A stretch of 64,000 nt of DNA from Escherichia coli (lineage in GTDB: Bacteria; Pseudomonadota; Gammaproteobacteria; Enterobacterales; Enterobacteriaceae). A program made the position numbers and the translations under genes. Where the stretch lies: the NCBI RefSeq assembly GCF_044324785.1, contig NZ_CP172127.1; one strand, 5' to 3'. Positions 4,978 through 64,000 of this stretch are shown in pieces. The stretch's first letter is position 1. Every line of letters begins with the position of its first letter. Below the pieces are notes generated by a model that saw only the letters and a list, made by a program, of their open reading frames with translations, ran no database searches and had not been told where the DNA came from.

Positions 4978-5667
4978 TTACTCACTCTCTGCCGGTAATA
5001 CTGGCATCCAGTCAATCGGTTTCTCGCCACGTTGTTCCAGCCACTGATTTGCCAGCACAAAATGGTTGCAGCCAAAGAACCCGCGATGCGCAGAAAGCGG
5101 TGATGGATGCGGCGCTTTCAGTACGTGATGGCGTTGCTTATCAATAATCGCCCCTTTCTTTTGCGCATGTGAGCCCCACAACAAAAACACCACGCCTTCG
5201 CGATGCTGGTTAATCAGGCTGATGACTTTATCGGTGAAGGTCTCCCAGCCGAGGCTGGCGTGGGAATGCGCCTGACCTGCGCGAACCGTCAACACAGTAT
5301 TGAGTAGCAGAACGCCCTGACGCGCCCAGCTTTCAAGATAACCATGATTAGGGCGGGTGAAACCGGGAATAGTATTTTCCAGCTCTTTATACATATTCAG
5401 CAGTGACGGCGGTGTCGCAATGCCGGGGCGAACGGAAAATGCCAGACCATGCGCCTGTCCCGGTCCGTGATAAGGATCCTGGCCGAGAATCACCACTTTA
5501 ACGTCACCCAACTCTGTAAAGCGGAACGCGTTAAAAACATCCTTTTGTGGCGGATAGATAGTGACGCCGGACTGCCGCTCGCTGGCGACGGTCTGTAGGG
5601 TATTAAGAAAATAGGGTTGTTGCTTCTCTTCAGCCAGCACGTCATGCCAGGTTAATTCGTTTGCCAT
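4978..5667 (-). CDS. ung: Uracil-DNA glycosylase
   Basis: 229 aa; GQDPYH active-site motif; full-length match to recalled Ung. Confidence 0.95.
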
Positions 5668-5797
5668 CTCGCTCTCCCGCGAATCTTCAATCCGCCTAGC
5701 TTAACTGCTTCTTTCTACAGAACAAAATCATGCTCATTTTTTAGACTTAAACGAGTGCAAAAAAATGTAAATTGGTAAAATTTCACACCTGCATAAG

Positions 5798-5864
5798 TTG
5801 ATGTAAAACAATAAAATCCATTTGCGACCATACTTGATGTGTGGTTTTTATTGATTTAAATCAA
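5798..5864 (+). promoter_or_regulatory. grcA promoter with two FNR boxes: TTGATgtaaAACAA (5798-5811) and TTGATttaaATCAA (5851-5864)
   Basis: Two TTGAT-N4-ATCAA-type palindromes with centres 53 bp apart, about 108 bp upstream of the grcA ATG; matches the recalled -93.5/-40.5 FNR architecture of yfiD/grcA. Confidence 0.75.
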
Positions 5865-5971
5865 AGATTCAAGGGTGTTTGAGGAGTATATATACACTCA
5901 AGCAACAATGGTTTTACCAATTGGCCGCGACAGGCTGAACAAATCAAATAATTTTGCCGGGGAGGCATCAC

Positions 5972-6355
5972 ATGATTACAGGTATCCAGATTACTAAAGC
6001 CGCTAACGACGATCTGCTGAACTCTTTCTGGCTGCTGGACAGCGAAAAAGGCGAAGCGCGTTGCATCGTTGCGAAAGCAGGTTTTGCAGAAGACGAAGTG
6101 GTTGCAGTAAGCAAACTGGGTGACATTGAGTACCGTGAAGTTCCAGTAGAAGTGAAACCAGAAGTTCGCGTTGAAGGTGGTCAACACCTGAACGTAAACG
6201 TTCTGCGTCGTGAAACTCTGGAAGATGCAGTTAAGCATCCGGAAAAATATCCGCAGCTGACCATCCGTGTATCCGGTTATGCAGTTCGCTTTAACTCTCT
6301 GACTCCGGAACAGCAGCGCGACGTTATCGCTCGTACCTTTACTGAAAGCCTGTAA
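5972..6355 (+). CDS. grcA: Autonomous glycyl-radical cofactor GrcA (YfiD), 127 aa
   Basis: ORF 5954..6355; ATG at 5972 after GGGGAGG; C-terminal glycyl-radical motif RVSGYAV. Confidence 0.95.
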
Positions 6356-6375
6356 GGCTTAAGTAGCAAGTTACT

Positions 6376-6408
6376 AAGCGGAAGAGGGCAACTTCTTCCG
6401 CTTTTTTC
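6376..6408 (+). terminator. Rho-independent terminator of grcA
   Basis: AAGCGGAAGA / TCTTCCGCTT stem followed by a T-run. Confidence 0.8.
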
Positions 6409-6409
6409 G

Positions 6410-6997
6410 TTAATAGAATATGCGTACCGCACAATAGACCAGCAACAGGGCAAGCACGATATTTAACTGGCGACCATACTGGCGAAACAATCGCTGAAAC
6501 AGATGCCCCGCCAGCGCCCAGCACACATTGCCAAACGTCCCAATCATCGCCAGCAAAACGCTGACGCCAACTACCCAGCTTAGCGCCTGCGTTTGCGGCA
6601 GGACAAACGTCGACAGTGCCGTAACGCCATACAAAATGATTTTGACGTTCACAAACTGCAAAGCAAAGCTGGCCCAAAAGCTGATTGGTTTTGCCTGAAG
6701 TCCGTCTTCCTTTGTTGGACTGGTAGCGATTTTCCACGCCAGCCAGACAATGTATGCCGCTCCTGCCCAACTCAACAGATGCACTGCTGCCGGGTCGATA
6801 ACAGCCAGTGAAAACGAAATTCCCGCACACAGCAACATGACGATTAAAAATCCCAGACTCATCCCTGCCAGCACGCGGGTACTCTGACGAAATCCGTGCG
6901 ATGTGGCTGAGCTAAGGGCGAGAATATTGTTCGGTCCTGGCGTCATGGCGGTAATCAGGGTGTAAGTCCAAAAAGCACTTAAAAGGGTCGGTGTCAC
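6410..6997 (-). CDS. eamB: LysE-family cysteine/O-acetylserine exporter EamB (YfiK), 195 aa, GTG start
   Basis: ORF-track match; start codon is reverse-strand GTG (cac at 6995-6997). Confidence 0.9.
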   Translation of the reverse strand: MTPTLLSAFWTYTLITAMTPGPNNILALSSATSHGFRQSTRVLAGMSLGFLIVMLLCAGISFSLAVIDPAAVHLLSWAGAAYIVWLAWKIATSPTKEDGLQAKPISFWASFALQFVNVKIILYGVTALSTFVLPQTQALSWVVGVSVLLAMIGTFGNVCWALAGHLFQRLFRQYGRQLNIVLALLLVYCAVRIFY

Positions 6998-13490: not shown

Positions 13491-14446
13491 TGAAGCAACT
13501 TTGGTTTGCCATGTCATTAGTGACAGGTAGCCTGTTATTCTCTGCTAACGCCTCGGCCACTCCCGCGTCCGGGGCGTTATTACAGCAGATGAACCTGGCC
13601 AGTCAGTCACTGAATTACGAGCTGTCATTTATCAGCATCAATAAACAGGGTGTTGAGTCTCTGCGTTATCGACATGCACGCCTCGATAACCGTCCTCTTG
13701 CACAATTGTTGCAAATGGATGGCCCGCGCCGGGAAGTGGTACAGCGCGGCAATGAAATCAGCTATTTTGAACCGGGACTTGAACCGTTCACGCTTAATGG
13801 CGATTACATTGTTGATTCTCTGCCATCGCTCATCTATACCGATTTCAAACGCCTTTCTCCTTACTACGACTTTATCTCCGTCGGGCGCACGCGTATTGCT
13901 GATCGTCTTTGCGAAGTCATTCGCGTGGTTGCCCGAGATGGTACACGCTACAGCTACATCGTGTGGATGGACACCGAATCGAAATTACCGATGCGGGTTG
14001 ATCTCCTTGATCGCGATGGTGAAACGCTGGAACAATTTCGCGTGATTGCTTTTAACGTCAATCAGGATATCGGCAGCAGTATGCAGACGCTGGCGAAGGC
14101 AAATTTGCCGCCGTTGCTTTCTGTTCCTGTAGGTGAAAAAGCTAAATTCAGCTGGACGCCAACCTGGTTGCCACAGGGTTTTAGCGAAGTTTCCAGTAGT
14201 CGACGTCCGCTACCGACGATGGACAACATGCCTATCGAATCACGTCTCTATTCCGACGGATTATTCAGCTTCTCGGTAAACGTTAACCGCGCTACGCCAT
14301 CGAGCACCGATCAGATGTTGCGCACCGGGCGCAGAACCGTCAGTACAAGCGTACGTGATAACGCCGAAATCACCATTGTCGGTGAACTGCCGCCGCAAAC
14401 GGCGAAACGCATTGCCGAGAATATTAAGTTCGGGGCAGCGCAATGA
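13490..14446 (+). CDS. rseB: SigmaE regulatory protein RseB
   Basis: 318 aa with signal peptide; start overlaps the rseA stop (TAATG). Confidence 0.95.
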   Translation: MKQLWFAMSLVTGSLLFSANASATPASGALLQQMNLASQSLNYELSFISINKQGVESLRYRHARLDNRPLAQLLQMDGPRREVVQRGNEISYFEPGLEPFTLNGDYIVDSLPSLIYTDFKRLSPYYDFISVGRTRIADRLCEVIRVVARDGTRYSYIVWMDTESKLPMRVDLLDRDGETLEQFRVIAFNVNQDIGSSMQTLAKANLPPLLSVPVGEKAKFSWTPTWLPQGFSEVSSSRRPLPTMDNMPIESRLYSDGLFSFSVNVNRATPSSTDQMLRTGRRTVSTSVRDNAEITIVGELPPQTAKRIAENIKFGAAQ

Positions 14447-36427: not shown

Positions 36428-36461
36428 GCATCTTAATTGATGTATCTCAAATGCATCTTAT
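36428..36461. promoter_or_regulatory. hmp promoter operator: NsrR-type palindrome (AAGATGCATTTGAGATACATCA on the hmp strand) with overlapping FNR-like TTGATgtatCTCAA
   Basis: Palindrome 18-51 bp upstream of the hmp ATG with a duplicated TGCATCTTA element; matches the recalled NsrR/FNR repression site. Confidence 0.7.
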
Positions 36462-42877: not shown

Positions 42878-43861
42878 ATGCCTAAAAAAATGAGAACAAC
42901 CCGTAATCTATTATTAATGGCTACGCTATTAGGTAGCGCACTATTCGCCAGGGCTGCGGATAAAGAAATGACCATTGGCGCAATATACCTTGATACCCAG
43001 GGATATTACGCTGGCGTGCGTCAGGGCGTTCAGGATGCGGCAAAAGATTCTTCAGTACAGGTACAGTTAATTGAAACTAACGCCCAGGGTGATATTTCGA
43101 AAGAAAGTACCTTTGTTGATACCCTCGTGGCGCGTAATGTCGATGCCATTATTTTATCGGCAGTGTCTGAAAATGGCAGTAGCCGTACCGTTCGTCGCGC
43201 CAGTGAAGCGGGTATTCCGGTGATTTGCTACAACACCTGTATTAATCAAAAAGGCGTCGATAAATATGTCTCGGCGTATCTGGTCGGCGATCCGCTGGAA
43301 TTTGGTAAAAAACTGGGTAACGCTGCCGCCGATTATTTTATTGCCAACAAAATTGACCAGCCGAAAATTGCCGTTATCAATTGCGAAGCCTTTGAAGTTT
43401 GTGTGCAACGACGTAAAGGGTTTGAAGAAGTATTAAAAGCCCGCGTTCCCGGCGCGCAAATTGTCGCTAATCAGGAAGGGACTGTTTTAGATAAAGCGAT
43501 TTCCGTTGGTGAAAAACTAATTATCTCCACGCCGGATCTCAACGCCATTATGGGCGAATCGGGCGGTGCGACACTCGGCGCGGTAAAAGCGGTACGTAAT
43601 CAAAATCAGGCCGGAAAAATTGCTGTTTTCGGTTCTGATATGACCACTGAAATTGCTCAGGAGCTGGAAAACAACCAGGTGCTGAAAGCGGTGGTGGATA
43701 TTTCCGGTAAGAAAATGGGCAATGCTGTTTTCGCGCAAACTTTGAAGGTTATCAATAAACAAGCCGACGGTGAAAAAGTGATTCAGGTGCCTATCGATCT
43801 CTATACCAAAACGGAAGACGGTAAACAGTGGCTGGCAACGCACGTTGATGGTCTGCCCTAA
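42878..43861 (+). CDS. yphF: ABC transporter periplasmic sugar-binding protein YphF
   Basis: 327 aa with signal peptide; AGGAGG RBS. Confidence 0.9.
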   Translation: MPKKMRTTRNLLLMATLLGSALFARAADKEMTIGAIYLDTQGYYAGVRQGVQDAAKDSSVQVQLIETNAQGDISKESTFVDTLVARNVDAIILSAVSENGSSRTVRRASEAGIPVICYNTCINQKGVDKYVSAYLVGDPLEFGKKLGNAAADYFIANKIDQPKIAVINCEAFEVCVQRRKGFEEVLKARVPGAQIVANQEGTVLDKAISVGEKLIISTPDLNAIMGESGGATLGAVKAVRNQNQAGKIAVFGSDMTTEIAQELENNQVLKAVVDISGKKMGNAVFAQTLKVINKQADGEKVIQVPIDLYTKTEDGKQWLATHVDGLP

Positions 43862-63126: not shown

Positions 63127-64000
63127 ATGGCCTTATTACAAATTAGTGAACCTGGTTTGAGTGCTGCGCCGCATCAGCGTCGTCTGGCGGCCGGTATCGA
63201 CCTGGGCACAACCAACTCGCTGGTGGCGACAGTGCGCAGCGGTCAGGCCGAAACGTTAGCCGACCATGAAGGCCGTCACCTGCTGCCGTCTGTTGTTCAC
63301 TATCAACAGCAAGGGCATTCGGTGGGTTATGACGCGCGTACTAACGCAGCGCTTGACACCGCCAACACCATTAGTTCTGTTAAACGCCTGATGGGGCGCT
63401 CGCTGGCTGATATCCAGCAACGCTATCCGCATCTGCCTTATCAATTCCAGGCCAGCGAAAACGGCCTGCCGATGATTGAAACGGCGGCGGGGCTGCTGAA
63501 CCCGGTGCGCGTTTCTGCGGACATCCTCAAAGCACTGGCGGCGCGGGCAACTGAAGCCCTGGCAGGCGAGCTGGATGGTGTCGTTATCACCGTTCCGGCG
63601 TACTTTGACGATGCCCAGCGTCAGGGCACCAAAGACGCGGCGCGTCTGGCGGGGTTGCATGTTCTGCGCTTACTTAACGAACCGACCGCTGCGGCTATCG
63701 CCTACGGGCTGGATTCCGGTCAGGAAGGCGTGATCGCCGTTTATGACCTCGGCGGCGGGACGTTTGATATTTCCATTCTGCGCTTAAGTCGCGGCGTGTT
63801 TGAAGTGCTGGCGACCGGCGGTGATTCTGCGCTCGGCGGCGATGATTTCGACCATCTGCTGGCGGATTACATTCGCGAGCAGGCGGGCATTCCTGATCGT
63901 AGCGATAACCGCGTTCAGCGTGAACTGCTGGATGCTGCCATTGCGGCCAAAATCGCGCTGAGCGATGCGGACTCCGTGACCGTTAACGTTGCGGGCTGGC
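63127..64000 (+). CDS. hscA: Hsp70-type chaperone HscA, N-terminal ~291 codons; 3' end beyond window
   Basis: ATG 63127 ([31 protein letters not shown]...); Hsp70 ATPase motifs DLGGGTFD; open to window end so absent from ORF track. Confidence 0.9.

Follow-up and report, generated by a model that had tools for sequence, protein, structure and literature searches.

Upstream of grcA (yfiD), in a 64,000-nucleotide stretch of the Escherichia coli contig NZ_CP172127.1 (hereafter “the window,” whose own positions are used throughout), two FNR boxes stand one behind the other, and the question that they raise is what the more distant box is for: whether it helps the nearer one to switch grcA on when oxygen is lacking, works against it, serves the neighboring gene, or does nothing at all.

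The two boxes and their promoter

Both boxes lie in the 304-bp intergenic region between ung and grcA, as read in the window and from E. coli annotation. The elements of the locus are the following.

4978–5667, minus strand: ung (uracil-DNA glycosylase), the divergent neighbor, outside the FNR module and given for context only
5798–5811, no strand assigned: distal FNR box (FNR II), TTGATgtaaAACAA / TTGATGTAAAACAA, centre 5804.5, equal to −93.5
5851–5864, no strand assigned: proximal FNR box (FNR I), TTGATttaaATCAA / TTGATTTAAATCAA, centre 5857.5, equal to −40.5
5887–5892, plus strand: putative −10 hexamer TATATA, assigned by its position relative to the transcription start
5888–5919, plus strand: predicted ArcA site, which spans −10 to +22 and so covers part of the core promoter (Park et al., 2013)
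5898, plus strand: grcA transcription start (+1), from literature coordinates on the identical K-12 sequence
5906–5922, no strand assigned: conserved palindrome cAAtGGTtttACCAATT (CAATGGTTTTACCAATTGG), centred at about +17, downstream of the transcription start
5961–5965, plus strand: Shine–Dalgarno sequence GGAGG, 83–100% conserved, ending 6 nt short of the ATG (5972)
5972–6355, plus strand: grcA (yfiD) coding sequence, 127 aa, autonomous glycyl-radical cofactor, from the open reading frame and RefSeq annotation
6376–6403, plus strand: intrinsic terminator hairpin of grcA, a 12-bp stem followed by a T-run

The original prediction had placed a perfect-consensus box at 5851–5864 and a second one at 5798–5811, with centres 53 bp apart, and these positions were found exactly so in the window. 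The proximal box is a perfect TTGAT-N4-ATCAA inverted repeat, and the distal box, read as TTGATGTAAAACAA, departs from it by one mismatch, at position 11. At 10.5 bp per turn, 53 bp amounts to about 5.05 turns, so both FNR dimers are expected on the same face of the helix. The perfect motif occurs once in the 64-kb window (the proximal box) against 0.06 expected from shuffled sequence. If one mismatch is allowed, there are 7 boxes where 2.27 would be expected, and 7 was reached in 2 of 100 shuffles. The five further one-mismatch boxes are at 1585–1598, 13628–13641, 36437–36450, 43742–43755, and 63293–63306. The open reading frame running from the ATG at 5972 to the stop at 6355 is b2579 in the K-12 annotation and is annotated as grcA in E. 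coli genomes, which settles the identity of the downstream gene in favor of the prediction.

To place published data on this sequence, window 5660–5980 (321 bases) was aligned with K-12 MG1655. The two differ by three SNPs, none of them in the boxes: two fall in the first bases of ung and one at 5792, 6 bp upstream of the distal box, and from 5792 onwards to the grcA ATG the sequences are identical. We presume that the SNP at 5792 is neutral for the promoter. Since the sequence is otherwise that of K-12, experiments done in K-12 apply directly to the promoter in the window. Coordinates were converted as window position = 2722421 minus the NC_000913.3 coordinate, with U00096.2 being the version 3 coordinate minus 1978. 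The conversion is verified by Table S6 of Myers et al. (2013; PMC3688515), both of whose motifs coincide exactly with the two boxes: the “yfiD/ung” motif TTGATTTAAATCAA at 2714579, with a score of 17.25, falls on 5851–5864, and TTGTTTTACATCAA, on the other strand at 2714632, with a score of 13.87, falls on 5798–5811. With the lower matrix score (13.87 vs. 17.25) and one mismatch vs. none, both being sequence proxies, the distal site would have the weaker affinity for FNR.

The in vivo data leave the assignment of both boxes to FNR on firm ground, as had been proposed: Myers et al. (2013; PMC3688515) list both of them as FNR motifs, and the accompanying ChIP-chip/ChIP-seq peak, at 2714605/2714607, maps to 5836–5838, between the boxes. 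The same work counts yfiD among the genes “directly activated by FNR” and assigns it a site at −40.5 (main table), and yfiD is present both in the FNR-dependent Table S8 (“Activated”) and in the O2-dependent Table S12, where a ratio of 0.11 corresponds to about ninefold more mRNA anaerobically, the direction of the ratio having been inferred from aegA and narQ. The σ70 ChIP-seq peak at 2714546 maps to 5897. Occupancy by σ70 at this peak is higher aerobically (323 vs. 224; Table S2) and so does not simply mirror the anaerobic induction of grcA. Table S6 additionally flags an overlapping IHF ChIP-chip peak for yfiD.

The transcription start follows from ArcA data: in Park et al. (2013; PMC3798270; Tables S1, S4, and S7), an ArcA ChIP peak is given together with a motif of three repeats at 2714524–2714555, and because this −10/+22 site maps to window 5888–5919, +1 is at 5898, where a start had been expected. 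The FNR sites are thereby centred at −40.5 and −93.5, and the predicted dual layout is borne out by this start together with the −40.5 of Myers et al. (2013). The core of the −10 hexamer (TATA, 5887–5890) is 98–100% conserved in the 62-sequence footprint described below, and the hexamer begins 29.5 bp past the centre of the proximal box in 48/61 loci. A generic σ70 scan of 5600–6450 returned no complete −35/−10 promoter and no −35 match; an absent −35 is expected, since a class II promoter depends on its activator, and it does not speak against a promoter here.

A perfect site centred at −40.5, inside the range of 39.5–42.5 bp upstream of the start (about 41.5 bp) that is typical of class II sites, a −10 element without a −35, and occupancy in vivo (start and occupancy being taken from the K-12 literature) make this a class II FNR promoter, and the second box 53 bp upstream, at −93.5, together with the identity to the K-12 promoter, makes it one of the yfiD tandem type. 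We have very little doubt that the locus is the published E. coli grcA/yfiD two-site FNR promoter, combining class II activation with a damping site. It is the same locus as the yfiD promoter of K-12, in which FNR I is centred at −40.5 and FNR II at −93.5 (Green, 1998; Marshall, 2001; Wyborn, 2002), and there is no functional difference between the two. The tandem boxes are thus real and functional but already known, and nothing new on E. coli follows from them; the original prediction amounts to a correct annotation call of a textbook regulatory region.

What the distal box does

The one correction to the prediction concerns the purpose of the pair. Tandem sites for anaerobic induction would, read literally, mean that both boxes cooperate, the distal FNR being a co-activator of class I type that strengthens anaerobic induction. 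One half of this stands: grcA is activated by FNR, and its expression is higher under anaerobic conditions. The other half does not, as the distal box lowers expression and mutants in it show more.

Experimental evidence comes from reporter constructs of the yfiD promoter (Metab Eng 2023, PMC10208419), the published primers of which match the window sequence. By these primers, the construct yfiD-WT spans roughly window 5789–5915; yfiD-m alters exactly G3 and C12 of the box at 5798–5811, giving ttTatgtaaaaAaa; and yfiD-P1 starts at window 5838, and thus is without the distal box. Anaerobic fluorescence of both yfiD-m and yfiD-P1 was much above that of the wild type, while yfiD-WT was described as “too weak” in strict anaerobiosis and was stronger when oxygen fell slowly. 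The latter behavior agrees with the microaerobic expression maximum of yfiD attributed to Marshall et al. (2001), as cited elsewhere. The title of Green, Baldwin & Richardson (1998) already announces downregulation when FNR occupies the −93.5 site and points to AR1 of the upstream FNR as the face involved, and by secondary accounts the upstream site cuts yfiD expression even with the downstream site occupied.

Against this, a cooperative pair can draw on the synergy of tandem activator sites that is possible at other CRP/FNR promoters, on upstream CRP, which can enhance or repress according to its position (mBio 2012, PMC3445967), on the 53-bp spacing that sets both dimers on one helical face, and on the net anaerobic induction of grcA (Myers et al., 2013, Tables S8 and S12). 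It is contradicted by the much higher anaerobic expression after mutation or deletion of the distal box, by the title of the 1998 paper, by the repression that upstream FNR at −85 to −95 is said to exert in synthetic promoters, and by a distal site that is sub-optimal in 61/61 species (see below), which would be odd for a co-activator. We therefore consider cooperation highly improbable. The distal box damps expression instead of aiding it: the pair tempers induction under full anaerobiosis, and expression peaks at low oxygen.

Damping of this kind has parallels in related systems. Synthetic tandem-FNR promoters derived from melR likewise combine a class II site with an upstream repressing site, and in secondary accounts of Barnard, Green & Busby (2003) FNR at −85 to −95 represses strongly; the −93.5 site of grcA falls inside this range. 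The melR-derived promoters are engineered and carry consensus sites, whereas in grcA the distal site is sub-optimal by nature and has been conserved in that state. At tandem CRP promoters (acsP2; PMC3445967), a second upstream dimer likewise reduces activation by the proximal one; repression there acts through the αCTD of RNA polymerase, but at yfiD the αCTD is not involved (mBio 2012, PMC3445967). Finally, FNR-repressed promoters of the ndh type also have two FNR sites, the upstream one negative, and, according to a secondary account, tandem FNR sites are otherwise seen only at repressed promoters. The difference is that grcA is net FNR-activated, with its proximal site at the class II activating position, and an assignment of grcA to the ndh type was rejected, yfiD being FNR-activated in Myers et al. 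(2013).

Conservation in Enterobacterales and a different layout in Pasteurellaceae

Within E. coli, an 801-bp query around the boxes was matched in 5425 of the 5426 complete genomes, and a 141-bp promoter core was single-copy in 5425/5426. In three of the more divergent strains, the SNPs are confined to two stretches, the spacer and the one that separates the proximal box from the −10; indels are absent, and both boxes are intact. The grcA loci of E. coli and E. albertii are 100% identical.

We scanned for the GrcA protein in one genome per species, which gave 80 loci, 65 from Enterobacterales and 15 from Pasteurellaceae. The box pair was found in 61/65 Enterobacterales species, at 53 bp in 55 loci and at 52 bp in 6, and no other box offset was found in more than 2 of the 65 loci. 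At any one locus, a box with no more than two mismatches would fall by chance into a given slot of two positions with a probability of about 0.002. In a MAFFT footprint built from 62 sequences, identity to the window base was 0.92 for the distal and 0.93 for the proximal box vs. 0.53 for the spacer between them and 0.37 for the far upstream flank; as the species are phylogenetically related, the relevant control is the spacer, which lies between the boxes and drifts freely.

This bears on whether the distal box is a functionless, chance FNR-like sequence in AT-rich intergenic DNA. The five other one-mismatch boxes in the window, and the roughly two per 64 kb that shuffles yield, do make such sequences easy to come by; but a box that is 92% conserved at a fixed spacing in 61/65 species, next to a spacer at 53%, is not one of them, and it furthermore lies under an FNR ChIP peak and has published mutants with a phenotype. 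A chance origin is excluded by the conservation, and we attach next to no probability to it.

The two boxes differ in how well they match the consensus. The distal box has one mismatch in 48 loci, two in 13, and none in 0/61, and the proximal box is perfect in 35/61, with one mismatch in 25 and two in 1; just 1/61 loci has its stronger box on the distal side. The non-consensus A at position 11 of the distal box is retained in 54/61, and the four loci with T at this position are each mismatched elsewhere. Yersinia, Pectobacterium, and Hafnia have AACAT variants of the distal box. Spacing is likewise held tightly: the standard deviation of the distance is 0.3 bp from box to box, against 29 bp from the distal box to the ung start and 12 bp from it to the grcA ATG. 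Taken together, geometry and the weak-over-strong affinity order are consistent with selection, and a selected geometry and affinity order are what a dose-dependent model of “activate first, damp later” requires.

The same distances argue about the gene that the distal box serves. A palindromic box in a shared 304-bp intergenic region could face either gene, and the distal box might accordingly belong to the divergent ung promoter and not to grcA; the peak label of Myers et al. (2013) reads “yfiD/ung,” and since ung is the neighbor of grcA everywhere (divergent in 65/65 Enterobacterales loci), synteny cannot discriminate between the two. However, the distal box keeps a fixed distance from the proximal box and lies anywhere from 112 to 300 bp from the ung start, ung/b2580 is missing from Tables S8 (FNR) and S12 (O2) of Myers et al. 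(2013), both of which list yfiD, and mutation of the distal box alters grcA-promoter reporters without ung (Metab Eng 2023, PMC10208419). We give a role at ung very little credence, and take the distal box to be part of the grcA promoter. In the ung-proximal half of the intergenic region, small conserved islands (75–95%) at 5724–5728, 5749–5761, and 5765–5772 are possibly elements of the ung promoter; inspection by eye of these islands gave no convincing −35/−10 pair, and a CRP site near 5766–5787 was rejected by eye, its half-sites being 12 nt apart instead of 6.

Some Enterobacterales depart from the common pattern. Three Pantoea loci (L049, L064, L070) and a Plesiomonas MAG (L076) have a single FNR-like box (e.g., TTGACccagGTCAA), no distal partner, and a shorter leader; it looks as though the damping site had been lost naturally or was never present. 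Conversely, five loci (L033, L035, L041, L067, L072), among Pseudescherichia, Klebsiella sp., and Rahnella, have a third box that resembles an FNR site (e.g., TTGATAATTTACAA or TTGATAAAAAACAA) about 43–44 bp upstream of the distal one, at −207 to −215 from the ATG; no counterpart of it was found at window 5755–5768.

The 15 Pasteurellaceae loci (L043, L045, L046, L048, L051–L055, L058, L060, L062, L063, L066, L073) are built differently. Their promoter is about 40–140 bp upstream of the grcA ATG (locus position 1501), and site positions are given relative to an assumed transcription start. Here grcA has a highly conserved σ70 promoter, TTGAAA followed after about 17 bp by an extended −10, TGATAAAAT, which is apparently self-sufficient. 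Relative to the assumed start, a box with at most one mismatch lies at about −89.5 to −92.5 in 11/15 loci (9 of these boxes are perfect) and at −100.5 in 3 more, and in 7/15 there is also a weaker box, around −46.5 to −48.5, with a spacing of 42–44 bp. The order of strength, strong upstream and weak near the promoter, is the reverse of that in Enterobacterales. The title of Green & Baldwin (1997) refers to enhanced class I activation by HlyX, the FNR homologue of Pasteurellaceae, and the layout may be linked to this property.

On this basis we lean, if only slightly, towards the view that in Enterobacterales the distal site has been held at a five-turn distance and at sub-optimal strength by long-term purifying selection in favor of a band-pass, microaerobic response to the FNR dose, and that Pasteurellaceae have rewired grcA. 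The breadth and precision of the conservation in Enterobacterales, and the different layout in Pasteurellaceae, are the new part of this work, and we regard them as modest additions.

Further inputs, proposed mechanism, and significance

Several other elements are found in and around the promoter. The palindrome at 5906–5922 is part of a block (5904–5926) that is about 85% conserved, with surroundings at about 50%, and 74–98% conserved per base over 5904–5920 in the 62 sequences; it overlaps the predicted ArcA site at 5888–5919. It resembles the PdhR operator consensus, AATTGGTnnnACCAATT, and on the grounds of this resemblance and of its conservation it is probably the PdhR operator. Between the FNR boxes, at 5826–5849, is a terminator-like hairpin, GACCATACTTGATGTGTGGTT, with a T-run; the hairpin (5826–5846) was rejected as a functional element, its stem being poorly conserved, as was a stray TTGAT half-site at 5834–5838, which is also poorly conserved and reads ATCGAT in some E. 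coli strains. Just upstream of the proximal box, a T-tract (GGTTTTT, 5843–5849) is moderately conserved, at 61–80%, and might act as a bend or an UP-like element.

PdhR is reported to repress yfiD, a repression relieved by pyruvate (PMC3181329). ArcA is described as acting at yfiD by anti-repression of FNR. The sign of its effect is negative in Table S7 of Park et al. (2013; PMC3798270) vs. a positive effect reported by Wyborn (2002).

The mechanism that we propose starts from falling oxygen, at which [4Fe-4S]-FNR dimers would first fill the perfect, high-affinity box at −40.5 (5851–5864). FNR bound there would recruit and activate RNA polymerase, the promoter having a TATATA −10 but no usable −35, and transcription would start at 5898. 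Under full anaerobiosis more FNR is active, and the weaker box at −93.5 (5798–5811), with its one conserved mismatch, would also be filled; this second dimer, bound on the same helical face five turns further upstream, would reduce the activation by the proximal FNR, by way of a molecular contact that we infer. Expression would thus peak microaerobically, when the spare glycyl-radical protein rescues oxygen-damaged pyruvate formate-lyase. ArcA, at −10/+22 and reported to counter the repression by FNR, and PdhR, the pyruvate-relieved repressor, would be further inputs.

The yfiD promoter has also been put to use as an engineered oxygen-responsive promoter. The grcA promoter remains the standard case, among natural promoters, of self-limitation by an activator through a second, weaker upstream site, so that expression is maximal at an intermediate signal. 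The fixed 52–53 bp phasing and the persistently weak distal site lend modest support to the view that this band-pass design is selected, and not incidental, in the Enterobacterales.
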